This document shows positions 43,389 through 64,000 of a stretch of DNA of 64,000 nt, one piece after another. The stretch is from Eledone cirrhosa (Eukaryota): assembly GCA_964016885.1 (NCBI GenBank), contig OZ024756.1, positions 35,774,001 through 35,838,000 of the forward strand, given 5' to 3'. The translations under genes were made by a program, and so were the position numbers. The notes beneath the pieces were generated by a model. It searched no databases, was not told where the DNA came from, and saw only the letters and a program-made list of their open reading frames with translations. Every line of letters starts with the position of its first letter. Position 1 is the first letter of the stretch.

Positions 43389-45039
43389 ATATTTAAGTTA
43401 AATACTAGACTATTTCATAGCAGGAATCCATATAAGTGCATGTGAATGTATGTTTTAATCCATGTATAAATATCTAAAAAATTTTTATCATCATCATCAT
43501 CATCAAAAACATTTCTTTGTTAATAAAGATGTAGCAGAAATCAATAAACCAAGCTATGGACCACTGGTGGGTTCAATGTCCTTATCAAAGTTCAACCATT
43601 ACATAATAACTTCCGCAGTTAGGATGAAATAAAGAATATTTAAAAAGCTAAGCAATTAATCACCAATTACATCCTGCAGTTCAAGTCTCGATCAGGATTT
43701 TAACAAAGCATTCTGAAAAATAAATAAACAAGCCCTCAATTAGTTAATACATACCTACATACATGTGGCAAATTGATAGAGACATTAGGGCATCAAATTA
43801 AATACCTCAGCATTTGTTTTAGCTCAATGTATTCAGAGTTCAAATCCCATCGAGGTCAACTCTGCCTTTCATCCTTTCCAAGTTGTTAAATAAAATAAGA
43901 CAGTGGGTTAACCCTTTAGCATTCACATTACTCTATATATACTATTGTATTTTCATGGTAAAGGCTTTATCTCACATAATGTCGAATCTATGAGATTTTG
44001 AAAGTATTTACTTTGAGAACAATACCTTAACATCAGTTTCAACGACCAGTTACAGCCAGCTTCAACAGAAAGAGGTAGAGAATTCTGGCCGGTTTTGGCC
44101 GGTTTGAACATTAAAGGGTTAAGGGAATTTTTAAAGAGTCAGACAGGATGCTTTGCAATGTCTAATTTGGCCTCCTCCTGCCAGTTGTGGCAGGTAAATA
44201 GTCTCAGCAATGGAAAGACCAAAGGAAACATTTCTTTGGTCAGAGTTGACAATTGACATCTTTCCTTTCCTACATACATATATGTATATATCCAGTTTAG
44301 AATAGGTAAACCATATCTCTGCATAATATAACAGCTGACTAAAAGTGTTGATACCAGGATGGGCATCTGATCATTGCCTCGTGAAAGACCCCATAATATA
44401 AAGCTTATCATGAGGCTCCGCAAGTTTAACCCCTCAATGAAGGCTTTTCCTCATCCTCGTCTCAAACTGGTAATGCCACTCTGTAGCACTTCCATGCCAA
44501 AAGAATTTTGGAAACAATCTTTAAACCATAATAATCATTTGCATATTTACACAACTAAATTTAATAACTTACATCTGGAAAATTGAAATGTCAACCATGA
44601 CAACACTTTGGATGGCTCAATCTACTTAAATGTAAATAGGAATCATAGGTGGGGAGAGGGAGTGGGAAGGAGGTAGAGGTGGTATTGTATAATAAACGAA
44701 TATTCCATCAGCCAACAATGATAGTAAATAACTGTCAGTACTATAAACAGGGCACCGAACAAAAACAGATGAAAAGTTGTAGGAAATTGGGAGTAAAAGT
44801 AAAAATTCCAATGTACCGGATGTTTTCATTAAACGATTATAGCCAAGATGTAGATGAAACGAAAACAAAATAAATGTAGTTGACCACAAATATAAAACTC
44901 TTTTATAGATGCATGTGTGCATATATATATATATGCACACAAAAAAGACAACCTTAACGATTGGAGCTTCCAGGAAGCTCCAATCGTTAAGGTTGTCTTT
45001 TTTCCAGATATGTCAATATTTATTTATAAAACAAATCTG

Positions 45040-45105
45040 TATTTTATCTGATGAAAGCGCACCATAATTTGCTTTGGTTGCCCTTGAAATATATATAATA
45101 AAATA
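45040..45105 (+). ncRNA. Type I hammerhead ribozyme motif with intact core
   Basis: TATTTTAT-CTGATGA-[stem II AAGCGCACCA...TGGTTGCCCTT]-GAAA-TATATA-TA-ATAAAATA: 8-bp stem I, both conserved core boxes, palindromic stem III, NUH triplet AUA. Confidence 0.75.
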
Positions 45106-45236
45106 AATATGGTTTTATAAATATAGTTTCCATTTATTAATATATTGTGTATTTACTCCACTAAACTGTTGAGTGCTTTATACCAGTTATAAACAATTTT
45201 AAGCTTGTTGAATCCCAACAAATTAAATATAACCTC

Positions 45237-45273
<37 letters not shown>

Positions 45274-46778
45274 TGTCATTCCAATTCCATCCCGCCCGTC
45301 TCCTCAATCTATTTTATTTCTCATTCTTTCTTCTGATGAAGGACTAGCGTCCTAAATGTTAAGACCCTCTTCCTGCTATTTCAAGTGTTAACCTAATATA
45401 TTCCTTCCATATACTGTACCGATTGTGTTGTTATTTCAGTTTACCTTTTACACGAACACACACATATATGTGTGTGTACTTTATAAGACTAAGCTTTAGT
45501 TTTGTCACTGTGAAGTTCCTCCTATGCAATGACAAATTGGTTCCTGTGAGTACACTGGAAAATCTCAATGGTAACAAGACTCAAGCTTGGCCTTAAAGAC
45601 TATACTAATCTGTACTATAGTACAGAGTACTCATTCTCGTGACTATCATTACTTATAACAAGATGACAATTATTTTACAAGAACATGAAGACAAAATATT
45701 CTGCGATGAAGAAAAATAAACATGGTTGTGTGTTGAACATAGACATGCAATGTAAATATATATCAAAGAATCAGAATAAACGTAGTTACATACGCATAAT
45801 AGATTATCTCATGTGTTGAAAAACATAATATATATCAAAGAACCAGAATAAACGTAGTTACATACACATAATAGGTTATCTCATATGTGTTGAAAAATAT
45901 AATTGATTATCAAATAATAAGACTGAAGTATTTAATACCTGATATGTTTTAAAGGGCCCAACATGTACAAAACACACATATTGTTAGAAAGTGATGGTTC
46001 ACAGGAAAATACGACGATGTTGCTAGAATAAGGGAGGTTATTCTCAATTGTGTAAATCGGGGTTATATGAGGTAAGGGGTTCGATAAGGAACCGAAAAGA
46101 AACAGTTATTGTTTATAGCTGAAACTACGAAGTGAATGAATTATTTGAAATGTGATACTGTCGTTGAGCTGAGAGAAAGATTTCCACAGTTAATATGGCG
46201 GTAATAGTAAAACAAGGGAGGTAATTCTGGCGAGTTTCTATTTAAAAGATTGTAGCTGACTACAAACAAATATAGTATTTTTTTATGTTTAACAGTTAAT
46301 GAACAACAGAAGTAAAAAGGAAAAATACAATGCGATGATGGGAGATATTTTTCTACAAATCTAAAGAATAATGTGATCATAATATTTCAGATGAAACTAA
46401 TAGCGAGTTGCTATGCAATGACAATTTTATTGTTTAAGAATGGCTGTGTGGCAGCGTTGCTACAATGAGTTAGATGAGTCGTCCAGATGTGAGCCAAACC
46501 AGATAAGATGACTGTGTCTTGCTCACACTGGGCCGACTTTAGCTTGCTTTCTACGACTTGATGCCCTTCCTAATGCCAAACGCATTATATATATTAAATA
46601 AATTTAAATAAAACCAAACAATGCATTAGAAAGAAAATTAAATCGCTAAGATAACAAACGAATCTTACCTTATTTGTGTTTCCTATTCAACGGAACATGC
46701 GTAAAGTTGTTAGGCGGTGTTATAGGAAATATATTACCCAGAGTTATCGTGTCTCATAAGGAAGTAGAGTCCTCGAAA

Positions 46779-48041
46779 ATGGATGACATATTCCGCGACG
46801 TTCTGGTCAAATGTCGAGTGTATCTCGTAACCAATATCGAATATTCGTGTTTGGGAGATTTTCTCACACAAGAAAAAGTCTTCTCAACGAATCAAATAGA
46901 AAAAATTGATGCAAAATCAACTAGAGTTGCCAAGATAAGAGAAATGCTTGATATGCTTCCGCGTCGCTCTAACAATCACTTTGCCGCTTTCGTGAAGTGT
47001 CTCCATTTTTCAGGACAGCAACACATCGCAAGTAATTTGATTGAATACCTCCACAAACTTTACGGAGAAAATTACCCCAATTATAAAAGAGAGCGACAGG
47101 AATGTATTACCAAACTTCTATCTAATTTGGCAATTACACACAGCAGCAATTCCATAACTGAAAACGATGACACAATTTTAACGACTCCTTGTCAAGTTAG
47201 TTCTTTAAACAGCAGTCGGTCGAGCGAAAGTTTTGATGAAAATCGTCTTGATGGTGCTTCTAATTATAATAACGTCCAGCAAATTGATATCCGACCAAAA
47301 TCTAGAGACCTGGAATGTTATAAAATGACTTCACACCCAAAAGGTTTGTTTTTTATTATTAACAACGATACATTTTACGATGAGAAACTAAATCGCAATG
47401 GATCTGGAAAAGATGCGAACGATTTAATGTCTTTATTCTCCGGATTAGATTTTTCATGTCATAAGTCTGAAAATCTAAATGGTTACGAAATGAAAAATGA
47501 GTTAATTCGATTTTCCCATCTCCCGCAATTATCAAAATGTGACTGCTGTGTTGTTGCCATTCTTACACATGGAAGAACTCAAAACAAGGTGATGGGAGTT
47601 GACGGTGGTGAAGTTGATCTGGAAGAATTACTCAGCTACTTCAATGACACTAAATGTGTTTATTTGTCAGGCAAGCCCAAATTATTCATTATCCAATGTT
47701 GTCGAGATAACGTCCTAACAGAATGTAGAAGTCAAGCGGCTATTCATTCCGACATAGTCATCGCTTACTCAACATCACCAGGAAATATTTCCTTAAGACA
47801 TACTACAGATGGAAGTATTTTCATCCAAGAGATTGTCAGTGTATTCAGTGAGAGTTCTAAAGTCATGTCTGTTATAGATATGTTAATAAAGGTTAGGGCA
47901 AATACACGGGAGAAATATCAGCAATTAACACAATCAATGGAACTATTACAATTCCCAATTAACGAATTTGCCTTAGAAAAGAGTTGGTATCTAAATCCAC
48001 CTCCTAACATTGATGAACGCTTCAACAGCGTCATATTCTAA
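46779..48041 (+). CDS. Intronless CARD-containing initiator-type caspase (caspase-2/9-like), 420 aa from first ATG
   Basis: N-terminal CARD (..KIREMLDMLPRRSNNHFAAFVKCL..QQHIA); KGLFFIINN; RNGS; ILTHG (His codon 47568); GKPKLFIIQCCRD (Cys codon 47700); SDIVIAYSTSPGNISLR; GSIFIQ. The ORF-track start at 46674 is a TTG, not an ATG. Confidence 0.93.
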   Translation: MDDIFRDVLVKCRVYLVTNIEYSCLGDFLTQEKVFSTNQIEKIDAKSTRVAKIREMLDMLPRRSNNHFAAFVKCLHFSGQQHIASNLIEYLHKLYGENYPNYKRERQECITKLLSNLAITHSSNSITENDDTILTTPCQVSSLNSSRSSESFDENRLDGASNYNNVQQIDIRPKSRDLECYKMTSHPKGLFFIINNDTFYDEKLNRNGSGKDANDLMSLFSGLDFSCHKSENLNGYEMKNELIRFSHLPQLSKCDCCVVAILTHGRTQNKVMGVDGGEVDLEELLSYFNDTKCVYLSGKPKLFIIQCCRDNVLTECRSQAAIHSDIVIAYSTSPGNISLRHTTDGSIFIQEIVSVFSESSKVMSVIDMLIKVRANTREKYQQLTQSMELLQFPINEFALEKSWYLNPPPNIDERFNSVIF

Positions 48042-48103
48042 TTCTTGTTTCTCTCCCCACAGTACACCTGTGCATATATATATTTCGTACAATCTGATTT
48101 AAA

Positions 48104-48144
48104 CCGAGCTGATGATCCGACCAAGGTGAAATAATTGTTCTCAG
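48104..48144 (+). ncRNA. Minimal hammerhead ribozyme motif in the 5' Penelope repeat
   Basis: CCGAG-CTGATGA-TCCGACCAAGGT-GAAA-TAATTG-TT-CTCAG; sister copy at 50615-50653 reads GAG-CTGATGA-TCCGACTAAGGT-GAAA-CAATTA-TT-CTCGG. Confidence 0.65.
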
Positions 48145-50614
48145 AAATGGTGAACTACTTCTACCAAACTCGTCCCATCGAATGAGTGCTCTACTACTAC
48201 CGATATAACCCACCACGTCTTCCACACCAATCAGCAGATTCTTTTCACCACATGGAAGTTTTTTTTCTACCCTGTGAGCGCTCTTTATATCCCCTTGTCT
48301 TACATAACCTTGTATCTCACCAACGTTTGAATGGATTTGTATGAACTGGATTACTCTATGAAGAATATTCCCACTCCCTCCAACCATGTTTACTCAAAGC
48401 TTCTACAGAAAGGAGAAGATGTTGTTAAACGCTTAAGATGGCGAGCCCTAGCTTTCAATGGTAAAATTACAGGCACCACTAACACCTACAACCTGAAATC
48501 AAGAGCCTACTCTCCTAAGGTAATTGAACTCGTTCCCTTTGAAACGGACCTTCTTGATTTAGTCGCTAACATTTCTTTTCGCAAACACTCTAGCACCTTC
48601 CAAAACAAACCTAGAAATGACATTAAGAAATTTAGGTCTTCCGTTAACACTTTTGTCCTTTCTGATAAAACTAATAACATTTACGAAGTCGATAATACAA
48701 CATACAGCCACTTGGCACACAACGCTTTAACTTCTAAATATAAGAAGGCAGACCCCACAGCCTACCACGACATCATTACAGAAGCCAAACACCTAGCTTC
48801 CACCCTTAAGGTAGATAAGAAACTCCAATGCTTAGCTAAGCGTGAGACCTTTCTCACCTTTAAAGATCACAAGGTAAACTTTGCTTCTAATCCCATGTGT
48901 AGACTACTGAAGCCAGCACGTACGGAGATGGGGCTAGTCAATAAGGCTATACTTAGAAATATAGTTAAGAATGTTAGGACTAAGTCCAACCTGTCCCAGT
49001 GGGAGAACAGTGACTCTGTCATTAAGTGGTTTAACTCTTTTAGCTCCAAAAAAGCGTCAGTTCGACATTGTGGATTTTTACCCATTGATCTCGGCAACCC
49101 TGTTGAACAAAGTGTTGGACTTTGCCACCACTTACACCACCATTAATGATTTAGACAGGGGTATTATTGCAAATTACCAGAAAACCCTCCCCTTCACAAT
49201 GGAGTAGCCGGTCAAAGAAGTCAGCTACTTCAGAACTTATCGACGTATCAATGGGATGATTCGATAGTGCTGATGTATGCGACTTGGTTGGCTTATTTAT
49301 TTTAGATATGTTATGTACTAGATTCCTGGACTTCCACACCGGATTATACTGCAACGAGGGTCTGACCCTATCGGGCCATAAAAGTAGTCACGATCTGGAC
49401 CGTTTTAAAAAAGATTTAATTGCAACATTTAATGAGTTAGGACTTAGGATAACAGTAGCTACTAATCTTACTAGCATAGATTACTTAGACATAAATTTAG
49501 ATTTTCCCACAAACACACACACACCTTTAGACCCTTCCATAAACTAAATGAAAAGCTAAATTACATACACAAGGACTTTCACCACCCACCTACAGTTTTT
49601 AGAAACCTTGTGAAAAATATCGGCACTAGAATCTTTAACCTCTCTTCTGATAAAACAATATTTGACAGAGTGGCACCCTATTACAATGCGGCGTTAGTTA
49701 ACAGTGGCTTCTCGTAACCAATTGCTTACTCCCCTACTATCGCCAACAACAATAGAAAAAGAAATTGTGCTAATAGAAAAATAATATGGTTCCCTCCCCC
49801 TTCTCACTCAATGTTAAAACTAATGTAGGTAAAAGATTTTAGCTCTCTTAGATAGACATTTCCCCATATGTCATAAATACCACTCCATCTTTAACAGACA
49901 CAGAGTGAAACTAGGATACTCCTGTGCTAAGAATATGAAGGTCCACATAACCAACAACCCTAAGAGCAGAACCCCACCAGGATGCTCTTGCTGAAGGCCT
50001 TAAGCTTGTCCCTTTCAACAACAATGTAACACACCCGCTGTAATTTATGAAGCTGTGGTCACTTCTAACCGACCAAATCAACAAGAGGTCAAATCCTATG
50101 TAGCTATGGCAGAGGGCCGGTTTAAAGAATGCTTCCTGAATCATCTATCAACATTCAGACACCCAGACAAACAATCGTCCACAAAGCTCGCGAGCCAGAT
50201 ATGATCCCTCAAGGATGCAGGCGTGGATTACTCCATTCAATGGAAAGTTATTACTAAGTCTAAGCCATACAGAAATGGGAATCCCTCTTGTGGGCTGTGC
50301 ATTGAAGACAGAATCAATATCCTGAGGAGTTGGCGTAGTAGCGCTTATCTAAATTCAAGGAATGAGCTTTTTTCTCACATTGTCCACACGTTTGGAAACA
50401 CCTATTGCATAATTACAAAGCTCCAGACTGACTAACATGAATAATCTATAATATTCTGGACTGAATAACATGAATAATTTATTATTCTGAGTTTCCACAG
50501 TCATCTCCCTTGCACCCATTTAACGTGGGTTACCTCCCATTTGGGAAGTGACTCCTTCTGCACATGACTATTAGTACAATTGTTTTTCCTTTTCTGTACA
50601 ATCTCATTTAAATA

Positions 50615-50653
50615 GAGCTGATGATCCGACTAAGGTGAAACAATTATTCTCGG
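50615..50653 (+). ncRNA. Minimal hammerhead ribozyme motif in the 3' Penelope repeat
   Basis: CTGATGA at 50618-50624 and GAAA at 50637-50640; stem III has a C-A mismatch, so probably impaired. Confidence 0.55.
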
Positions 50654-51649
50654 AAATGATGAATTAACTGTTGTGGAACTACTTTATATATATATATATA
50701 CGATATTAACAAATGGAAACTATATTTATAAAACCATATTTATTTTATTATACATATTTCAAGGACACCAAGTTAAATTATGGTGTGCTTTTATCAGATA
50801 AAATATAATATAGAGCAGTTTTATAAATAAATATTGACATACCCTTAAAGAATGCAACCATTACTGTTGGAAGCTCCAGGATAGTGGGGTTATATTTTTA
50901 ATTATACTATTATGTAAGTTAGTATTGGATATTTTTAAATAAGCCGCTGGGTTACGGAGAAAGAGAGAGAGATAGAAGAAACAAGAGAGAAAAGAGAAAG
51001 GAGAGAGAGCAAAACTCTAAGTGATAGGTTGTTGAGTTATCTTAACATTTGAGATGAAGTGAAAGAGTAAATAAATATTTATTTTTTTATGGATGAATAT
51101 GGAATGTAAATAATCATGAATAGAAGATACATTTATAATATGAGAATTTTAACCATTGTTTAAATATGATTAAATGTTTAGTTAATCAATTAAATTATTG
51201 AGATCCATACATTAAAAATTGAGATCTATATATTAAGAAATCTATATATTATTATTAATTATTAAGACTATATATTATTATTAAAAATCTATATATTATT
51301 AGAAGAATATATTCACACATATACACACGCAAGTACATATACATATAAAAATATATATACACACGTATAAATATATATACATATATATCTACGTATATAA
51401 TATATACATACAAAATATAAAGGATTTTTTAATTTATGATATAGGAATCTTATAAAATCAGAGAAAATCATTTCTATGTAATATCAAAGCAGCGTGAAGG
51501 AGAAATTACGTTATTTAGTTATATAAATGTTACAATTGTTAAGATACTAAAGGAAATTTTTATGTTATACACACTTTATGTTATTATACAATTTTTTTTA
51601 ATATAAGTTTTATATCTAATAAGATTACCTGTTATGTAGTTATGACTGT

Positions 51650-51652
51650 TAT

Positions 51653-51731
<79 letters not shown>

Positions 51732-51734
51732 AAT

Positions 51735-51823
<89 letters not shown>

Positions 51824-51843
51824 AATATAAATATATATATATA

Positions 51844-51875
<32 letters not shown>

Positions 51876-51939
51876 AATATATATATATATAAATATATAT
51901 ATATATAAATATAAATATATAAATATATATAAATATATA

Positions 51940-51979
<40 letters not shown>

Positions 51980-51980
51980 G
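51650..51980. repeat. (TA)n/TAAA microsatellite
   Basis: Direct inspection. Confidence 0.95.
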
Positions 51981-53996
51981 TAATAATAATAAATTTGAAG
52001 ACTAAAATCCAAAGAGTGCTCGATAAGGATAAATGTATATCAAATATATAAGAACTGTAGAGCAAATATTTATTAAAATAACAGATTAAAGTTTAAGCAA
52101 AGAATCGCTGCTTTCACCCTTAAGGGGATCTTCTGAAACTAAAAAAATCAATCTGTGAACGCAGAAGTAAATATTTCAAAAAACGTTGCAACCGAAGGAA
52201 GACAAGAAGATGATACTTTGGTTCGTGGAAACGTTCCCTGGCAAAGAACGGGAAAAAAACGACAGATTTACGTCATTATTTGGAGAGGTGAAAACAATTG
52301 CACGCAAAGACAAAACCACGTTTATAGTATAAATAAAGTCGTAGACTAATATTCTATTTAGGAAACCGAATGATTCTCGACTTCAGAGTTAAGAATAAAG
52401 TAAATAAATTACAGAGGTAATTGAAATTAAATATATACATATATATGTATGTGTATATTTATATATATATTTATTATTTTCTCTATTACATTACATCCAT
52501 TATTTTATTTTATATCAGCTTCGCTTTCAATTGTTTTAGCCTTTGTTTTTAAATCCATATCTTACATCCACTGCAAATAAAATTTCATTCTGGTGAGCGA
52601 TTTCAGACGTCAGTGTTGAGCTCATCTGTCTTCGTGAAACCTTTGGTAAATGGAAAAATTGTCTTATGTTGTTTATTACATAACTATATACATATTAGAA
52701 TATGGGGTTAACCAAGGACTTTGGGGCCATGTTCATGAGTGATGGAAGGCAGGAGGTTGAATTGAGTGCAAGAATTGCAATAGCTGATGCAGTAATGCAC
52801 CAACTTCAGTAATCAGAAGGGAGTAGGTGTAGGGGTACCGTATTGACATAGAGTTTCTAGGGCATTTTAAGCCTGGTGGAACCCATCTCCTCTCCAGGTC
52901 TGAGTACAGCAGATTTCTACCAGAGAAAGAGAGGAAATGAGAAAGTGGTATAGAGGAAGAATTGACACCAATACTAGACTGGTACTTTTTTATTGACCTC
53001 GAAAGGATGAAAGGCAAAGTTGACCTCGGCGGGATTTGAACTCAGAAAGCAGAGAGCCAGAACGAATACCATAAAGCATTCTATCCGACGTTCAAATGAA
53101 TCAGCCAATTTGCCACCTATATGTGTATAAATATATGTATATATGTAGCGAAACATTGTATTAGTAGATGCACATGCTATTTGCAGTTGCACACAATGCT
53201 GATAGCTATACTTCACATCTTGTCACACTCACTGCGGAATGCACACTTGGCTTTTTTAACATATGAAGTGCAACTCAAGGCTCCATATAACTAAAGCCAG
53301 CATAGATCTTGATCCCACATTTTTCAAATCATACTCTAGCAGTTCGCTGCCTCTTCTATTACCAATCACTGATCCCAGATCAATCTGAGCAAGGAAATAA
53401 TGTAGTGAAACCTCAACATATTTTTCACATAATGGTTTTCTTTGTTTGCCATACACAACCACTAAAAGACTGACCTATTATCTCAGATAATGTTCTCTTG
53501 TAGGAGGCTCACAGCACCAGATTGTCCAAAAAGAGAACAGGTCTAAATCGCTATCTGTTTAATGTTTCTGGGCAACCTAATCCTTATATACAAGAGATTT
53601 CAACCCCCAAATATAGTCTGCTTATCGACTCTACAATAAACAGGCCATTTGTTTGGTCAGCCATATATATATATCAACCTGAAACATTTCCATTCATATA
53701 TATATATACACACACACAATATAGTCTTGCACTCTGAATATGGCACATGGGGAAAAACTTCAATTGAGTTAATCCCAGTCATTTCTTGAAATTGAGAAGC
53801 AAACAAGAGAAAGAATTCTCATAGCTTGAGCTGATCGAAATAAGTTGAAACAATTTAAGACAATTCATAGGGAATGAACCTTCTCTATAAGCCAACTTGG
53901 TTAAAGCAATGAACATATTTTAATTATATTGGCTCTTCATGGTGAAATATAATGACTCAACAAGTTGGTTAGACTAAACGACTAAAAATAGATGTT

Positions 53997-54197
53997 TGAG
54001 GGTCAGCTGAAAAGTTCATAGGTTGACCAAGATATTCTCAAGGAATTACCAATTGAGGTTTATTTTTCAACAACATAGTCCCTGGAAAGAACCAATGCAG
54101 TTATTGATAAGAAGAGTTGAAATTAATGCATGCAAGATTTCACAGCTCTAGCATCACTTCTTCATAGTCAACTTCTGAACTTTTCAGCCAACCCTCA
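53997..54197. mobile_element. ~200-bp mariner-derived MITE (internal-deletion derivative)
   Basis: TIRs TGAGGGTCAGCTGAAAAGTTCA / TGAACTTTTCAGCCAACCCTCA; both halves match the two ends of the mariner at 59687-60936. Confidence 0.8.
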
Positions 54198-54525
54198 GAT
54201 CTTGAAATTGTGAGCTGGTTTCAGCTGAATAATTTTTTTTTTTTTTTTTTTTTTGTCACCTTATTCAAACTGAGAAGACACCTCAACCATCATCAAACAA
54301 TCACATATTACTTTTCAGGTACAGAAAATTGTGGTTAACAGATGGTCTATTCCCCACTGGATAACCTATGATGAAATGAAATTATATATGTGTGTGTTGC
54401 AATGAAAGAACTTTAGCTACATATGTGCAGGAGTAACGAATAAACAAGAATCCTTTCTCCGATTTCATTTCCTCCATAAGACATTACTATAACGTACAAT
54501 TCAAATAAAGATTAAAATTTATTTT

Positions 54526-55530
54526 GGCGATACTTGGTTTTAGTGTCCTAAATTATCATCATCGACATTCAATTATTAGCTTCACCCACTACACGAAACG
54601 TCACGAATTGATACTAATAATCCCCGCAATATTTTTCTCCATGAAATCCCTGATCGTACTGCTGAGACTCTGCTGCCTCTCATTGAAAGGCACTGTGGCC
54701 ATACAGATGAATGGCGGGCATACAATCAAATACCAAATTTGCCTGGTCGTTATACACATCTGACTGTCAATCATTCAAAGCATTTCGTTGATCCCATATC
54801 AAGTACACACACGCAAAATATTGAGGGGATGTGGTCTCATACCAAAAAGAAACTAAAACGTATCAATGGTACCAGCCGACCAGTATTTCAGTCGTATTTA
54901 AGGGAGTTTGAGTGGCGATGGCGCAATGTCACGTATCCAACTGGTGAAGGTAAATGTTTCGAAAAAATTTTAAACTGTATATCGCAACAATATATTGTTT
55001 AAAGAATACTGTATATCGCAACAATATATTGTTAAAGAAATTTTTTTTCTCTTGTTAAAAACTGTAAATCTGTTTTTAAAAAAATACTGTATATCGCACC
55101 AATATATTGTTTAAAGAAATTTGTTTTCTGTTGTTAAAAACTGTAAATCTGTTTTTTAAAAAATGTATTTCGCAACAATATTTTTTCTGTTAAAAACTGT
55201 AAATAAATATTCATGTAAAAATGAAACATAGTGTTTCTGTTAAAAACTTAAAAACTGTAAATAAATATTCATGTTAAAATGAAGCATAGTTTTTCTGTGA
55301 AAAACTGTAAATAAATATTTATTTTGTTCAAAAAATAAATCAAAAATCTAATTTTCTCTGTTAATATTTTAATAAATATTTATTCTAAAAATTCAATGTT
55401 TTTTCGTGCAAAAATGAAGCATGTAAGAAAATTAACATGTAAAAATCAAGCAGCTGATGACGTGTCGTGGGTGGAAGTAATAATTGAATGTCGATGATGA
55501 TAATTTAGGACACTAAAACCCAGTATCGCC
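54526..55530 (+). mobile_element. Non-autonomous Merlin (IS1595/ISXO2-like) DNA transposon, 1005 bp
   Basis: TIRs of more than 50 bp starting GGCGATACT(T/G)GGTTTTAGTGTCCTAAATTATCATCATCGACATTCAATTATTA; flanks TTTATTTT/TTTATTTG (7/8 TSD); in-frame transposase remnant 54646-55002 IPDRTAETLLPLIERH..TDEWRAY..VNHSKHFVDP..HTQNIEGMWS..GTS..YLREFEWR. Confidence 0.9.
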
Positions 55531-55625
55531 TTTATTTGTATAGAATATTTCGTAATTTACAATGTTAAAAATGATCCATTTATTGATACAGATGACGTAC
55601 CAACAATGAAAGCGTCTTGTTTCAT

Positions 55626-55650
55626 GGGAAATTCCTTTCGGCTATAAATA
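55626..55650 (+). promoter_or_regulatory. Candidate promoter: kB site plus TATA box, flanked by TGACGT sites
   Basis: GGGAAATTCC at 55626-55635 fits GGGRNNYYCC; TATAAATA at 55643-55650; TGACGT at 55593 and 55662; about 230 bp upstream of the CARD ATG. Confidence 0.55.
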
Positions 55651-55880
55651 TATAATTGTAATGACGTGTGTTTATAGTTTAGATAATAACGAGGTGAAGG
55701 GCTGAATTTTCTATTTGCAAAGTTGACTTAACGTAGACAAGAAGCAGTGTTATATGAAATATTATCTGAACTGAATCAGTATCCTACTGAGCGTTACACT
55801 AACAACAACAGAAATACAAGTTGTCAGGCGATGTTATAGGAAACATTACCCAGAGTTATTCGATGTGATAATTAGAAGTA

Positions 55881-56301
55881 ATGTCGTTAATAATGGATGA
55901 TTTGATAGTCAACACTATACTGAAATGTCGGATTTATCTCCTGAAAAATATCGACTATTCGTGTTTGAGAGATTTCCTCATACAAGAACAAGTCTTAACA
56001 AAGAGTGAAATAGAAACGATCGATGCCAAGTCAGATCGCAAATCCCGGATAAGAGAAATACTCGATGTAATCCCACGTCGCTCTGACGAAGTTTTTATAT
56101 CGTTCATCAAGTCTCTCAATTTTTCTAAACAGCAACATATTAGCCAACATATAGTGGATGTTTTCCAAGAATTTTATACAAAAAAAGGCTCTTTGAAAAA
56201 AAATGAATATATTAACGGTTGCCTACTTAAAATGAATTCATCTTCAAAAGAAGAAATGCAATCGGATGATGAGGAAAGTTTAGAACTCAAGATTAAAAGA
56301 G
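55881..56301 (+). CDS. CARD-RING protein exon 1 (CARD paralogous to the neighbouring caspase)
   Basis: Gapless alignment to the caspase CARD, 47/83 identities by manual count; ends AGA G|gtttgt, a phase-1 donor. Confidence 0.82.
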
Positions 56302-56464
56302 GTTTGTTTTTTTATTTTTATTATAAATAAACAACGATTTACAGAAGAAGAAAAACCCCAGCGTTCTACATTGTATTTCTTGTGTCATAATTCTGAAAAT
56401 CTAAATGATTTCACTTTCAGTTGACTGTTGTGATGTGATAGTCGCACTTGGTGGTGAATTAATC
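56301..56464 (+). pseudogene. Decayed caspase large-subunit coding remnant at the 5' end of the CARD-RING intron
   Basis: Five collinear blocks match caspase 47343-47619, including TGTCATAATTCTGAAAATCTAAATG (56383-56407) vs TGTCATAAGTCTGAAAATCTAAATG (47457-47481), 24/25 identical. Confidence 0.8.
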
Positions 56465-56714
56465 ATGTTTTGTTTTTTTGTTGTTTCTCTTTTTATTTAT
56501 TTATTTTTTCTTTCTCTCGCTCTGGTCGTATATTGTGTTATATATGTGTGAGGTTCCTAGCAGTAGTTAATTGTATTTATTGTATGATTATATTTTCATT
56601 CTGAAAGAAGTGTGAACAATTTATAATGTTATTTATACAACTGTGAATAAAATTTAAACTAAGATCTCAATAGTAAAAAAGAAAAACAAATATTTAGTTG
56701 GGTTTCCCGTTATT

Positions 56715-57110
56715 CACTCTCGTGAACTCTTTCGGCCTCCACCCGCTTTCCTGTCGCCACAGTGCCGGCCGCCTTTCACGCCATGCTGCCCTCAACGAGG
56801 TCATAAAGCATGGCTTGGACACTGCAGGCTTCCCTTCCCAGCTCGAGCCGGTGGGGCTGGACCGAGGGGACGGCAAAATACCGGTCGCTCTCCGACAGGT
56901 TTGCGGTTGTACCCTTTGCAGTGGAGACTTCTGGTGTCCTCGGCCCCTAGGGCTACCTCCCTACTCACCACCATAGGCAGTGAGCTGGCCAGTCGCAGGT
57001 GTGAGCCTTGCGAGCTGGAATGGATTTTCCAGCGCGTCTCCCTTGCCGTCTTCCAGGGAAACGCCTTCTCTATTCTGTCCGCCGTGGTTGTGGGGAGGCC
57101 ACCAATATGA
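56715..57110 (+). mobile_element. CRE-like (RLE) non-LTR retrotransposon 3' fragment inside the CARD-RING intron
   Basis: GC-rich island translating [46 protein letters not shown] and WIFQRVSLAVFQGNAFSIL. Confidence 0.75.
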
Positions 57111-57819
57111 TTGACTGACTTGTCATGTTATCAGTCAGATGTTATATGTATATAGGTAAAGGCGGCCGAGATAGACGGATTGGAACAGTATCTCTTGTCA
57201 CCCTTTTTGAAAATTGGGATTATCACTCCCCACTAACTTATTTGGGGGATGGTTATTGGTTAGAGCGTCCGTCTTACAATCGTAAGGTTGCTACTTCGAT
57301 TCTCGGGTCGCGCTTTGCTTTGTGTTCTTGAGCAAAACATTTTATTTCATGTTGCTCCAGTTTACTCAGCTATAGAAATGAATTGCGACGTCACTGGTGC
57401 CAAGCTGTATCGGCCTTTTTCATGCTGGCATGGGTTAGACGATTTTGAACTATGGTAGGTCAGGTGACCATGTCTTGCTCATACAGAACTGATTTGGGCT
57501 AGGTTTCTACGTCTGGATGCACTTCCTAGTGCCAACTTCATTTACAATGAGTCCTGGGTGCTTTTTGTCGTGATACCTACACGACCACTTTATAGTGTAG
57601 ACTGGGTGATTTTTGTCGTATTGCCATCATGACCACTTTACAGTGTGGGCTGGGTGCTTTTTGTTGTGGCACCTACACGACCACTTTAGAGTGTGTTAGT
57701 CTTTTATTTATTGACTCTCTGCAGAATATTGCTTTGCTGCAGTTTTCTTATGAATTGTTTGAAATTAAGATTTCTAACTAAATATACTGACATATACAAT
57801 TGTATATTTATCATTTCAG

Positions 57820-57983
57820 ATGAGAACGAAGATGTGAATCGCCTATGTCTAATTTGTAGTGAGAAATATGTCAACATAGCCTTTATGTGTGGACATTGCG
57901 TTTGTGATGTGTGTGCAAAGAAGATGATTGTGTGCCATCTCTGTAGGAAAAATATTAACGAAAAGATACCTCTTTATTTCTAA
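57820..57983 (+). CDS. CARD-RING protein exon 2 (C3HC4 RING, Mind bomb/IAP-like C-terminal type)
   Basis: catttcag acceptor, phase 1, in frame with exon 1: (D)ENEDVNRLCLICSEKYVNIAFMCGHCVCDVCAKKMIVCHLCRKNINEKIPLYF*; all eight Zn ligands present. Spliced product 194 aa. Confidence 0.8.
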
Positions 57984-59686
57984 TGAGCAATTTTTTTTAA
58001 ATATTTACTTCTCCATCCACAGATTGATATTCCTGTTTCAGATTATCATCATTATTTAACGTCCATTGTCACTGTTAACAAGGGTTGTATGGGTGTTCAC
58101 AAACCAAATCAGTAAATTAATCAGAGCTAGGCACCATTCAGACAGGCTTGAGTCTAATGTCTCGCTTACATACGTTCCTGCATTCTACAGAGTCTACTAT
58201 TGTACATTTTATCATGACAATACCATTAGAAAGGTTGTCATGTCTTTGACTCAACTGAAGAGTCCTCACAACCCTTTCTTTTGCAAGTTTTCTATGCTTG
58301 GATTCCTTTTCAATTGCCAACCACCTTACAGAGTGTACTTGGTGCATTTTTTGTGGCACCAACACTAGAGAGACTGGAGGTTCCTCTCTTTTTTTTGGCA
58401 TGGTTTCTACAGCTGGATGCTCTTCCTAACATTAACTACTTTACAGAGTGTATTAGATGCATTTTATCATGGAATCATAACTAGGGCAGTTGTTGATCAT
58501 AGACTGTACCAAAAGGTCCTCCCTACTCTATGGTGGGAGGTAAGGAAGATGATTTCATTGGTAAATGACAAGGTGATCAAAGAAGGGGTCTGATGAAGTT
58601 TAACAGGGTGAACAGAGGGAGGAAGGGATGAGGTGTTCAGTGGGGGGGTCATGTCATATTCTTCTGAGAGAAAAGCCATTTGTTGTCAGCAGAAATAGTA
58701 TCTCCCTCAACTGCTTTCAGTCCATTCTTATTTTGGCTACCACACTTTAAGAGCATCCTCCCTCACTGCTGATTAGATCACCTAGGTAACAAAAAATGTC
58801 AACAACTATGGAGCCTGCTGAGCAATTGAGGGAATCTATTTGACATGTGCTCATAGTGTATACTGCTCTTGTGTATCTACTGCATATAAAGTTTATCTTC
58901 TCTACCTATAATCCCACTTCATCCTTTGTACATCCATTGATTACACTCTGTTCACCTTATAGAGATTCTGCCCACTCCTTTCTGACATATCAAACAAAGT
59001 CACTTCCCTGGCAGTATCAGGATCTTGTCTTCTTTCCCTACTTATAAAGACTTTAGTTATCGTTAAGTTTAGGTTTGTCTTGAATTATGATTCTAACTCT
59101 TCTACTGATTCAGCATTCAACTGTAGAAACCATGCCAAACAAAGAGCAGAAAGGAGTCTTTAGTTGTGTCAAAGTCATGATGACTACCCCAACATTGGTG
59201 CCATGACGAAATTCACAGTGCACTCTGTAAAGTGCAAGAGCATATGTAAGTGAGATGCAGGCCCCATCCTATCTGAGAGATCAGTAGCTCTAATTAAGTA
59301 CTTTAAATATCACCAACTGTAATTTATTGATTTTCTCCAATCTTTTGATGTTATTATAACTTGAGCATAGTGGATTGGCAGTATCAGTAGAGGGTCGGAC
59401 GCCATGCTTTGCAACAAAGAGTTACGGCCCTTTATGGTCTGAGTTCAAATCCCGCTGAGTTAACTTTGCCTTTCATCCTTACAGAATCGATAAAATAAAG
59501 TACCAGTAATACACTGGGATAATTTTGAGCCTTGTGCCAAAAGTAGAAACAATTATAACTCTTGTAGCGTGCTAATTTCACTGTGTTGAATTAGCAATAG
59601 AAATATTTTTATTAATGTAAATAAATGTTATTGAGAAACACCTGTTCTTTTTTGTCATTCTTTATATCACTGGTGAAAACCATTTA

Positions 59687-60936
59687 CTAGGGTCGGCTGA
59701 AAAGTTCCCCGGCTGACCAAGATACTCTCATGGAACGTGACCCAATGAGGTTTATTTTTCAACATAGTCCCCCTTGTGGTCAACACACTTCTTCCATCAG
59801 TGTTGCTGTGCTTGGATCCCATTGGTGAAGAAGCTTTTATCCTGTTGGTCAAAAAAGGTCATCAACAGCAGATATGACATCATCATTACTGAAACACTGG
59901 TTCCCAGCCAGGTGTTTTTTCATGTTTGGGAACAGATGGGGCCAAATCAGGAGAATAGGGAGAGTGGTCAGCCAGTTCAAAGCCATAGTCATGCACAGCA
60001 GCCATTGAAACCAAGGACTTGTGTGCTGGAACAGTGTCCTGATGCGACAAGACCCCTTTCCTCAGTTTCCCTAGCCTTTCATAATTGCCTCAGCAAGTCA
60101 GCATAATACTCTCATCGTGTGGCCTTTTTGAAGATTGTCAATAGCACAATGTCTTTTGCATCCCCAAAAAACTGAGGCCATCACCTTCCCTGCAGATGAA
60201 ACAACCTTGGCCTTCTTTGGAGCAGGTGAGGAGGCATGATTCCAGTGCATGAATTGTCTCTGGCTCAAAGTGATGAACCCAACACTCATCCTGGGTTGGG
60301 AAACGTTCAAGGAAACCAGATGAATCTGCCTCAAACAATGTCAGATTTTCTTGTGATGTAATCAGCTTGGTGCACTTTTGATGGGTGTCAGACAGTGTGG
60401 CACCCACTGAGCAGAAACCTTATCATGTCAAGTTCATTGTGCAGAATATTCTCAATGCTAATAACATTGGCTATTTGATTTTATAGTCAATCATCTGCCA
60501 TCCATCACCATGTGGTGAACACACTGAATGTTTTCCTCAGTGGTGGCAGTTGCATGATGTCCAGACCCTGAGTCATTTTCAAGACTCTGGCTTCTTCTAA
60601 ATTCATCTGTTCACTTTTGCACTGTTGATAAAGCTGGAGCGTCATCCCCCATGTCAGCATTAATGGCTAAACCCCTTGTCTGCAGATAATTGATATCTTC
60701 AAGACTCTCCCTTCCCCTCCTAATGTATGTCCTTGGGAACTAAACCCATTTTCTGCAGACACTTGATAACACCATGATGCCAAATTTTGTCCATTTTCAA
60801 GAAAAGTCACTACCGGTTACTTTGAAAGTCTTCTTTGTACAGCCAAATATCAGTTTACCTGGAAAGAGTTGAAATTAATGTATGCAAGATTTCCCAACGC
60901 TAGCATTCACTCCTTCATAATCAGCCTATGAGCTTT
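59687..60936 (-). mobile_element. Decayed Tc1/mariner transposon
   Basis: TA followed by TIR CTAGGGTCGGCTGAAAAGTTC; minus-strand motifs WVPH, TQDECWVHHFEPET, PKKAKVVSSAGKVMASVFW, YSPDLAP; frameshifted. Confidence 0.88.
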
Positions 60937-61199
60937 AAACTGGTTTCACTCAGCAGACGACAGTTGACTACTTAAGCCTGATATTGCTTATCTCCCTTTC
61001 GACTATATTTGAACCAAATATCTGCACACACGCATTTATCTTCCAATGACCAGGTTTACTTTCAAAATTATCCGAGCTTTGTCGTTCAATTACTCGTACG
61101 TTATAAATCGATTCGTGTACATATAGAGATGGTTATGACTAGACATTGAAACAAAGTTAGCGCTTTCCTATTCTGTGTGTGAACATAAACAAAGAATAT

Positions 61200-61660
61200 A
61201 TATATAATTGAATATAAAAGAGAGATAAACCCAGATAGATACATATGTGTTGAAATCGTAAGGGACCAGATTGCCCCAATATCGGTTTGTATTTATTTTA
61301 TTTATTTATTCTTTTAAATTGAGTCTGGCAAACCCTATTGTTCATAGTTAGTATTTTTTTCACCCAAGTGAATCTGGTCCCTTATGATTTGAACACATAT
61401 ATGTATATATCTGTGTTTATCTCTCTTTTATATTCAATTAGGGCTAAATGCCGCTTACTTGCTGTAGTTGCTGCTTACTTCAATGTATGAGTGGTCAACA
61501 GACAACTAGAACTTGAACAGAAAAAACAGAAATACACACACAGATATATATATATATATATTATCAAAGGTATATTTTGAGTTAGAAACTCAAAATAGTC
61601 TCTTACAATTAAATAGCTCAAGGAAAGATTTTTTCCGGGCCGTATAATATAATTGAATAA
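61200..61660. repeat. Rearranged direct and inverted pieces of a dispersed repeat also present at ~38175-38400
   Basis: 61306-61440 is a direct match to 38175-38310; 61200-61270 and 61561-61657 are inverted matches to parts of the same unit. Confidence 0.75.
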
Positions 61661-61738
61661 TGGTTATCACCGAAATATATATTGCAGCGAATATGAATAA
61701 ACGAAGTTAATTTTAACATGTTGACTTACAACTCTTAT

Positions 61739-61779
<41 letters not shown>

Positions 61780-62595
61780 ATATTTGTAAATCGAACTTCA
61801 GCTGCAGTACAACACATACAATTCGATTTGTTTTGAAGCAATCACAGAACACTCAATGGATCGAAAGTTAAAAACAAACATTAAGTCCAGAGTTAAACAC
61901 CGTAGTTATAAAGTGTGACACCAAGAGAACCGACCGAAGGCACAAACTATACATACAACAAAATAACGATGTATACAAAAAGGTATATATATATATATAT
62001 ACACACACACAAACTCATTGCTAGAACAGCCGTTAAAACACCCAAATGCCGTCAAAGAAAGCGATGTATTCAACTCTTTTCGCAATTCTGCCAGCTATAA
62101 CCATGAAGTAACATCTATCTGCCGTTTTGCACTTCAGAAAGACAGAACTATTCTGATATTGAAATTTGTAGAGTAAAATTAAAGAAATAAGATAAGTTTA
62201 TGCCATTTTATTTATTCCAATGAAAAATATTTGTAAATTTTGCTTCTTTCGGGAATTCTTGAGAAATTAGTTACAACTTTGTCCTTCCATAGGTATTGGT
62301 GTTTACTTATTGAGACACGTTAGTTATATATGACAAATGTTAGGAATTAACAGCAACAATTGATGCATATCATTTGATTTCTAACTGAGTTGAAATCGAT
62401 TAAAGGGATCTTGTATTATTAACCCGACCTTGTGCCAAATGTAGAAACAATTATTAACCCGTCCTTCTCCTAAAGGAATATATATATAATCGACATTAGC
62501 GGGATCTGAACTCAGAACGTAAAGAGACGTAACTATATGCCGCAAAGCATGCTGTCCGACGCTCTACCATGTCCCAAATAGGATTACACCACAAA

Positions 62596-62645
<50 letters not shown>

Positions 62646-63449
62646 TTGTTAATTTCGAACCTCTTAGAAATAAATATATATACTGTATATATTTTTTTAA
62701 CGCTAAATTATTAATAACAATATACCGTGTTTGCCGGCCTATTGGACGCCCCCCCCCCCCTTCTTTTATTATATTTTACGTTATATTTTGATGTTTATAA
62801 GCATTTTTATGGACCACGTCCAATATGTTTCACTCTTCGCGGGTGCTCTAGGAACGTAATCTACGCGAATACCGGGGGACAACTTTGTGTGTGTATATAT
62901 ATATATATATATAATATATATATATATATATAATATCTATATATATATAATATCTATATATATATAATCGACCTTAGCGGGATTTGAACTCAGAACGTAA
63001 AGAACCGTTACCAAAATTCCGCAAGATATTTTGTTCCGACTGTCCTGTATAATAGTAGGCCTACTATGTTAGTAAAACCGGAAAGAAAAAAAAAGTAAAG
63101 TGTGAAGTTTGTCTCGCTATAACGAGAAATGAAGGTGGGTGAAGGAAGTTAACTGAGAAAGGAAATTCCATGTATGGCAACGTTTTGTTGAATGTGAGGA
63201 GGTGTAGGCGAGAAAGTTGCCTGACTAGTTGTTTTTCACTGCTAGAGCAGACAATACAGACACTCTTCTCTCTCTTATACAATTATTTATCTCGCACACA
63301 ACAATAACACTCCTATAATTCTCCCCTCACACCCTAAACAACACTAAGTTCTCATAATCAGAACGTGTTCGTTAACTTTCAAAGTCAGGCTGACGGAGAG
63401 AGTAAGAGACAGACAGACAGACACATACAGTCATGCCACACGTTACGAT

Positions 63450-63890
63450 GTTGGCCCATCTTGGATTTTACCTGGTACTGCTTCCTACATTCTTGTTTGC
63501 AGATGTCCCAGTATGGCGATCGGACAACTATCCTCACCCAAGAAATCAGTTTGTCTTGTGTAAACAAAACAAACCGGAATGGTTGTGTGACCCAGATGGC
63601 CTACTTGACGACAACGCGAAAAAAATGCTTAACTTGGAGCTGGAAGAAATGAACGCTAAGTACACTCTGTGTCCTTGTAGTGCCTGGGTTTGTGAGAGCA
63701 ACTCTGGCGGATACTATACTTCTGTTATTCTGGCCAAGAAGATTGAAACAGGCACCAATACCAGTCAGGCTGCAATACTGCATAATGCCATTAACTTTGT
63801 ATCTTCGCTCGACCTACGCTGGTCATTCGACGAAGAACGATGCCAAGAAGGAGTCATTTTATTCTACTCCAGAGATGACGATACTTTACT
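63450..63890 (+). mobile_element. Possible degenerate LINE APE-endonuclease fragment
   Basis: More GC-rich; STYAGHSTKNDAKKESFYS resembles the S-x-Y-A-P-T...KE-x-FY motif of RTE-type endonucleases. Weak. Confidence 0.35.
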
Positions 63891-64000
63891 GACATACAGT
63901 GGTAAAACGGCGCGCAAAGTTCTCACCCCTGAACTAATCCGTGAGATAACAAACCATGCCGGACAACATTTCCTGCCTAACGAAGATATGTCTGTGGGTC

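Follow-up and report, generated by a model that had tools for sequence, protein, structure and literature searches.

A caspase copy joined at a latent exonic donor to a Mind-bomb-type RING exon, probably through an imported acceptor, in Eledone cirrhosa

The window, as we call the whole stretch of 64,000 nucleotides of Eledone cirrhosa DNA analysed here (G000:C17:35774001-35838000 of a 3.0-Gb assembly), contains a spliced gene that appears to have two parents: a partial copy of a CARD-caspase gene is cut at a donor that was latent in the caspase coding sequence and is joined, through a likely imported acceptor, to a Mind-bomb-type RING exon. The product is likely a CARD-targeted ubiquitin ligase, and we regard this reading as a whole as probable. 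The event is a chimeric gene duplication with half-intronization and not a classical intronization. A first-pass annotation of this DNA had proposed that protease DNA became the intron of the new gene; a spliced intron does begin with caspase-coding DNA, but this DNA makes up only 109 of the 1518 intron nucleotides (the first 7%), most of the remainder is repeat DNA, and the acceptor appears to stem from the RING module.

The caspase, its copy and the transposon close to the copy have the following positions in the window:

46779..48041, plus strand: parent gene, an uninterrupted CARD-caspase open reading frame of 420 aa (Pfam CARD 1e-13, Peptidase_C14 2e-42)
47341..47349, plus strand: latent donor AAG|GTTTGT within the KGL codons of the parent, read from the sequence
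54526..55530, no strand assigned: DNA transposon bounded by 70-nt terminal inverted repeats (93%), with an 8-bp flanking duplication that matches at 7/8 positions; it carries a fragment of a transposase (PF12762)
55818..55892, plus strand: duplicated stretch 5´ of the ATG, homologous to 46704-46778, with an additional in-frame ATG at 55881
55893..56301, plus strand: coding part of exon 1, CARD (residues 7-86) and shortened linker, 136 codons and 1 nt, phase 1 (Pfam CARD 5.5e-14; covered by the X4 contig)

The parent caspase has both catalytic residues, the His in THG and the Cys in QCCRD, and shows 52%, 51% and 45% identity to named relatives from O. vulgaris, O. bimaculoides and Argonauta, respectively. 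The active-site motif at 47690-47707 reads QCCRD in the parent and QACR or QTCR in relatives. Elsewhere in the genome (L008-L027), many caspase domains are each encoded by one open frame with a length of 250-360 codons, and several are arranged in tandem (C28, C8, C2, C1). Three CARD proteins with a caspase-like part (P0020, P0022, P0025) are without the catalytic motif (QVPD, QVPN or QIPN for QACR) and form a second family of protease-dead CARD-caspase relatives.

The copy is located about 9 kb downstream of the parent; its DNA at 55818-56140 is 72% identical to 46704-47026, the sole other DNA match in the genome. Over 263 nt the two CARDs align without any indel, and 47 of 83 residues are identical. 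The dS of the CARD is 0.68 (0.40-1.13) and dN/dS is 0.45 (bootstrap 0.24-0.80), a value summed over both lineages that may thus partly reflect the parent; in neutral simulations, 96 codons remained open and free of indels in 0-6.6% of the runs. Selection on the CARD, for which the first-pass annotation had argued, is supported by these comparisons as purifying. The proposed direction from caspase to CARD-RING gene fits the intact CARD-caspases of Octopus, Argonauta and other relatives, a protein-level outgroup comparison in which the relatives' proteins are intact caspases; the CARD tree is without resolution. It places the window pair together at 61/61 support, keeps an alternative (AU 0.21) and does not date the copy, and a 16-row CARD tree equally gives no settled placement.

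Between CARD and donor the linker has a net loss of 156 nt, that is 52 codons, so that the frame at the donor is the same as in the caspase. Homology to the parent was not above chance in the linker (225/1000 and 186/1000) or in the upstream promoter (156/500 and 40/500). The linker contains a KMNSSSK motif, whose match to the caspase KMTS codons (12/13 nt) is not significant, and between this motif and the donor an acidic stretch of 17 codons (56250-56300), which may be an in-frame insertion.

The transposase fragment of the transposon at 54526-55530 is one that we take to be Merlin-like. The 5´ end of the X4 contig (about 55491) is located within the right terminal repeat of this transposon, and this repeat may supply the start of the CARD-RING gene. 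A second element, presumably Penelope-like, is found at 48087-50666: it begins 45 nt past the caspase stop, has 71-nt direct terminal repeats (87%) and broken long frames, and a Pfam search of its 271-aa frame gave no match. The window also contains the last exons of a voltage-gated sodium-channel-like gene (7273-10540), a single-exon C2H2 zinc-finger gene (41240-43159) and an exon of a further protein-coding gene (63406-63999), all labelled from their translations.

The first-pass annotation had placed the donor AG|GTTTGT on the Gly codon of the KGLFF motif, and there the block AGGTTTGTTTTT indeed matches at 12 of 12 positions (56300 vs 47342). The letters are AAG|GTTTGT in the parent but GAG|GTTTGT in the copy; since GTTTGT is identical at 47344 and 56302, the site was created by no change. 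In the parent, the open reading frame continues through AAG|GTTTGT, a site which, by a crude score, is tied for the closest fit to the consensus of all GT sites in the parent. Judged by this comparison of parent and copy, the donor is a pre-existing, latent site of the caspase coding sequence. AAG|GT matches the protosplice consensus (A/C)AG|Gt, as given in the available part of PMC3488318, and an intronization model gives co-opted cryptic sites a central role (PMC9612004, available part).

Downstream of exon 1, the following features were determined:

56302..57819, plus strand: intron of 1518 nt, GT..AG; the joint is spanned by X4 record 25, coordinates checked
56302..56410, plus strand: ex-coding caspase remnant starting with the donor GTTTGT, homologous to 47344-47484, with an in-frame stop at 56328-56330
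56415..56655, plus strand: dispersed high-copy repeat, here truncated on its 5´ side and with its end close to AATAAA (56646), containing TGACTGTTGTGATGT and GGTGGTGAA
57704..57819, plus strand: acceptor-side intron DNA with TTTCAG, common to G000:C18:30508006-30508111(-)
57820..57983, plus strand: coding part of exon 2, a Mind-bomb-type C3HC4 RING (PF13920, 1e-7) with the stop at 57981-57983
57984..58419, plus strand: 3´ UTR, up to the reach of the X4 contig
G000:C18:30507800-30508111, minus strand: sister module (L076), an orphan broken Mind-bomb-type RING exon found by genome match

Splicing is documented by one assembled contig of 1411 nt (X4 record 25) that joins 56301 to 57820 at GT..AG. 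Letters 603-1402 of the contig are placed on 55500-56299 and letters 1-602 on 57818-58419 with no extra letters between; an AG common to both ends lets the joint slide, and it is therefore set at 56301^57820. The junction is thus read from the placed segments of one contig from one run of one study, and X4 is taken as RNA from its contig total (88 vs about 1400 Mb) and the GT..AG joint; in a separate table of joints, 56301^57820 is not among the 15 listed rows, which are filled by repeats. In X4, both exons have a depth of 78, compared to 1.2 and 2.9 in the bins just within the intron (56308-56509). In X1-X3, three runs of one other sample with about 1.4 Gb of contigs each, the donor is crossed by an uninterrupted contig (55500-56467, 0 differences). 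The predicted donor is thus the one used in the X4 contig. The intron is in phase 1 on both sides, and 409 and 164 nt add up to a CARD-RING frame of 190 codons plus stop. At 56308-56509 the X1-X3 contigs reach a depth of 21-25, about double the 10-13 of the single-copy flank, an excess that is probably due to repeat copies for the 3´ side only, 56308-56408 not being covered by this explanation.

Without splicing the frame stops 9 codons past the donor, at 56328-30, and two AATAAA are found in the intron (56326 and 56646). The selected product might therefore be, or might first have been, a CARD-only decoy of 145 aa, with the RING added later or being incidental. Caspase-1-derived CARD-only proteins provide a precedent (PMC11630849, available part), and one genome cannot give the order of events. 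We nevertheless consider such a decoy unlikely: the depth of 78 on both exons compares with 1-3 just within the intron, the CARD runs into the RING in one contig, so that this transcript form carries a second domain, and all RING ligands are kept here while the sister copy has decayed.

The 5´ end of the intron is clearly of caspase origin. Between 56302-56410 and 47344-47484, 79 of 94 aligned columns are identical with 6 gaps, a match reached by none of 2000 dinucleotide shuffles under each of three scorings, so that the similarity survives comparison with shuffled sequence; the piece 56296-56369 was matched by 6 and 1 of 2000 such shuffles in two scorings. A block with 24 of 25 identical positions (56383 vs 47457) was found in 0/2000 shuffles, and its pattern occurs at exactly two places in the 3.0-Gb assembly, both within the window. 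With 56298-56470 as query, the neighbouring caspase scores 58, against 19-28 for each of the 20 further caspase loci compared. Gene conversion is not needed for the 24/25 block, as the CARD alignment itself has windows of 23/25 and 37/41. The first-pass annotation had listed five collinear caspase remnants, and all five strings are present at the positions given; AGGTTTGTTTTT, AACAACGA(T) at 56330 (vs 47361) and the 24/25 block are confirmed as caspase remnants by the shuffle tests, but TGACTGTTGTGATGT and GGTGGTGAA are located inside the dispersed repeat. The notion of a wrecked protease beside an intact CARD applies to indels, with 6 gaps in the 109 nt of the remnant against none in the 263 nt of the CARD, but not to substitutions: identity is 84% in the remnant (gap-optimised alignment) and 70% in the CARD.

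The repeat at 56415-56655 is 72-76% identical over 235-276 columns to all four copies examined on other contigs; a first look gave 1641 candidates, and 40 of these were scored. A further 85-110 nt upstream, absent in the window, is common to three of the four copies. A genome search with 56140-56470 found five other places, which match 56412-56463 only. Taken alone, TGACTGTTGTGATGT (56422) and GGTGGTGAA (56450) are marginal matches to the caspase (26-89 of 2000 shuffles) and ambiguous ones, since 56419-36 also fits 47597-614 at 15/18; moreover, GGTGGTGAA is present in 4/4 repeat copies, and these score 18-23 against the caspase compared to 22 for the copy in the intron. Caspase homology ends at 47484 (56410 in the copy), and the His codon at 47568 is located about 84 nt further. 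Thus, with TGACTGTTGTGATGT and GGTGGTGAA being repeat DNA, deletions that remove the catalytic His, as claimed in the first-pass annotation, are not supported. A reading of 56438-56452 as the His region, with the His codon replaced, was considered and rejected, this stretch being repeat DNA as well. That nothing matches the Cys region was borne out (92/200 and 29/200 shuffles).

The 3´ end of the intron has a different source. No caspase similarity was found at the acceptor and the downstream exon (57700-58420; 47/200 and 67/200 shuffles), and 57718-57822 is 81% identical over 105 nt to C18:30508006-30508111(-) (E 1.5e-16), the two being the only such places in the genome. The TACTGAC at 57785-57791 we assume to be branch-point-like. 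Sequence comparison thus makes it likely that the acceptor was imported together with the Mind-bomb-type RING exon. In a classical intronization, donor and acceptor would both derive from one continuous caspase exon. Caspase coding DNA does make up the donor and the first 109 nt, but the acceptor region and the downstream exon match the RING module on C18, and the caspase frame is not resumed after the intron; we find this explanation hardly credible.

The RING exon has kept 8 of 8 zinc ligands and has an Arg after the last Cys. The best PDB match of the RING is MIB1 RING3 (8v0d). Among 38 genomic RING loci (30 of 39 PF13920 matches plus 8 more, with one Mind bomb inner RING row left out), the best two are Mind bomb terminal RINGs, aligned without gaps, and among the RING-like rows of these loci an ungapped fit is limited to L062 and L064. 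The RING tree gives no settled placement beside Mind bomb. The sister exon on C18 has in-frame stops, a frame-shifting length and a Tyr at one ligand (7/8 ligands). At the junction, C18 reads TTCAG|ATGGATCC and L004, which we take to be MIB2-like from its ankyrin-like and RING exons, reads TTCAG|ATGGCTCC. The distance from the acceptor to the first Cys is 89 nt in L004, 58 nt in C18 and 26 nt in the window. L004 has two AGs that could serve as its acceptor. The last intron is in phase 1 in L004 and in phase 0 in the MIB1-like L005, which is nearly identical to MIB1 RING3.

Over 36 codons, the synonymous difference is 0.46 between window and C18, 0.83 between window and L004 and 0.95 between C18 and L004; the value for the two CARDs is 0.45, so that the split between the RING module and its sister seems to be roughly as old as the CARD copy. 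At the 13 positions that have one residue in all three, the codon is identical between window and C18 at 10 and between window and L004 at 5. The high GC3 of L004 (0.66 vs 0.36) inflates its synonymous distance and weakens the age contrast. That the RING was copied directly and recently from the last exon of the Mind-bomb-2-like gene was rejected, the synonymous sites being saturated and the flanks unalignable. When 11 exon peptides of two Mind bomb loci were searched around the window module (44000-64000 plus 10 kb), only RING peptides matched, all on the one RING exon; other Mind bomb exons were likewise not found near the C18 module. With no further Mind bomb exon beside either module, an intermediate donor gene was not found. 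The simplest reading of these sequences would be that an older Mind-bomb-derived terminal exon and its acceptor were duplicated together, at roughly the same time as the CARD, and that this exon is alive here and dead on C18.

The direction could also be the reverse, C18 being a dead copy of an earlier state of the CARD-RING gene whose RING came straight from Mind bomb 2. The module occurs at only two places in the genome, and within 20 kb on each side of the C18 exon no host gene was found except helicase-like exons about 4 kb upstream. However, an older carrier gene is indicated by the synonymous sites, which are saturated between either copy and L004 but differ by 0.45 in the CARD copy, and the exon start on C18 is longer and more L004-like; we thus regard the reverse direction as somewhat unlikely. 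Under either direction the acceptor is not derived from the caspase. The exons upstream of the C18 module, on the same strand and about 4 kb away, belong to a DnaB/AAA_25 helicase gene, presumably Twinkle-like.

It might also be possible that the locus is a transcribed chimeric pseudogene that makes no useful protein. The 5´ part of the X4 contig contains 11 upstream ATGs, which could limit translation of the CARD-RING frame, and the CARD has diverged fast (47/83). Against this, the 190-codon frame is open, dN/dS is below 1, the CARD is free of indels and the RING is intact beside a decayed sister, making a pseudogene very unlikely.

Compared with known routes, the gene combines features of several. 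As in intronization, the 5´ splice site derives from a former exon (GTTTGT at 47344 and 56302, used at the junction), but the 3´ splice site does not derive from that exon (no caspase similarity; 81% match to C18), and the parental gene does not resume downstream, where the exon is a RING. In human retrogenes, exonic splice sites that are silent in the parent are activated unchanged in the duplicate, to which the caspase donor would be comparable; there, internal exonic sequence gives both intron ends and the parental frame usually resumes, whereas here the donor alone is parental and the frame enters a foreign exon (PMC3565874, available part). At least two donor sequences are present in the genome, one of them genic (the caspase, and the module L076/L004), which agrees with the chimeric duplicates of Katju: a unique terminal exon in the derived paralog with its donor sequence elsewhere in the genome is what that paper requires in its available text (PMC3449122). 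Here, however, the breakpoint is located within a coding exon and the intron itself unites former coding DNA and repeats with the imported acceptor.

At the protein level, the gene resembles CARD16/17/18, which arose by duplication of caspase-1 and inhibit it (PMC11630849, available part), in being a local caspase duplicate that kept the CARD and lost the protease. Like cIAP1/2, for which the insertion of an exon module has been proposed, it has the CARD directly upstream of a C-terminal RING (PMC13159474, PMC8917759, available parts). It differs from them in that no BIR domain is present, as Pfam finds CARD and RING only in the two coding parts with all 190 codons accounted for, in that the RING is Mind-bomb-type and not IAP-type, and in its independent origin. 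According to the available text of these papers, the CARD of cIAPs restrains the RING and does not pick substrates, no CARD was found in the mollusc IAPs studied (PMC8917759), and some other lophotrochozoan IAPs have a CARD (PMC13159474). With Mind bomb E3s the gene shares a C3HC4 RING with terminal-RING spacing, identical and ungapped, at the protein C-terminus (MIB1 RING3, PDB 8v0d), but only the last exon is present and no ankyrin or other Mind bomb exon is located nearby or upstream. When exon 1 was used in a full HMMER scan, 159 hits were obtained, and the 150 that were listed are all without a RING motif. A word search, which is weak evidence, and the listed Atlas rows gave no CARD-RING orthologue, and orthologues may exist unannotated. 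A literature search, with supplements and most subscription papers outside its scope, found no description of the gene studied here; by titles and abstract starts, the "card-ring" papers listed appear to concern IAP/RIPK signalling.

The history that we propose would start with a local duplication of the caspase 5´ part, shown by homology, either as a tandem DNA copy or, perhaps, partial from the start. A terminal RING exon, still attached to about 105 nt of the intron that preceded it, would have been placed downstream, as the sister on C18 suggests, presumably in this direction. The latent AG|GTTTGT would then have paired with the imported phase-1 acceptor with the frame kept (one contig; identity with the parent), and the skipped protease DNA, as the sequence shows, decayed by indels and was cut off by repeat insertions. 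The CARD and the RING would have been kept by selection (dN/dS 0.45; 8/8 ligands vs 7/8 and stops in the dead sister). We are highly confident of the local duplication, the donor-acceptor pairing and the protease decay, and quite confident of the arrival of the RING exon with its own acceptor.

From domain knowledge, the CARD may dock on the parent caspase or on a CARD adaptor, and the RING would ubiquitylate this partner and damp activation; by analogy, we put the chances of this last step a little below even. In lophotrochozoans, which have CARD caspases, CRADD is the predicted adaptor (PMC11463336), the CARD is placed before the RING in cIAPs (PMC13159474), and mammalian MIB2 ubiquitylates cFLIP-L, a caspase-like death regulator (PMC7815719), each according to the available part of the source. 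A CARD-CARD complex prediction, in which alignments were unused, gave a score of 0.00 and counts neither way.

The component mechanisms, cryptic sites and chimeric duplicates, are already known. Both sources of an intron gain are rarely visible; here the donor parent is located 9 kb away and the acceptor sister on another contig, which allows the event to be placed in time and in sequence across octopods. When a latent AG|GT of a coding exon is paired with an imported acceptor, an intron is gained and a domain exchanged at once, by a route that common classifications divide. Only tentatively do we suggest a lineage-restricted octopod gene, with intron birth readable at both ends, that encodes an independently invented BIR-less CARD-RING ligase acting on its source caspase. 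A caspase that spawned its own regulator would be a testable case of convergence on CARD-only proteins and cIAPs, and it would come from a group in which the control of cell death has received little study.
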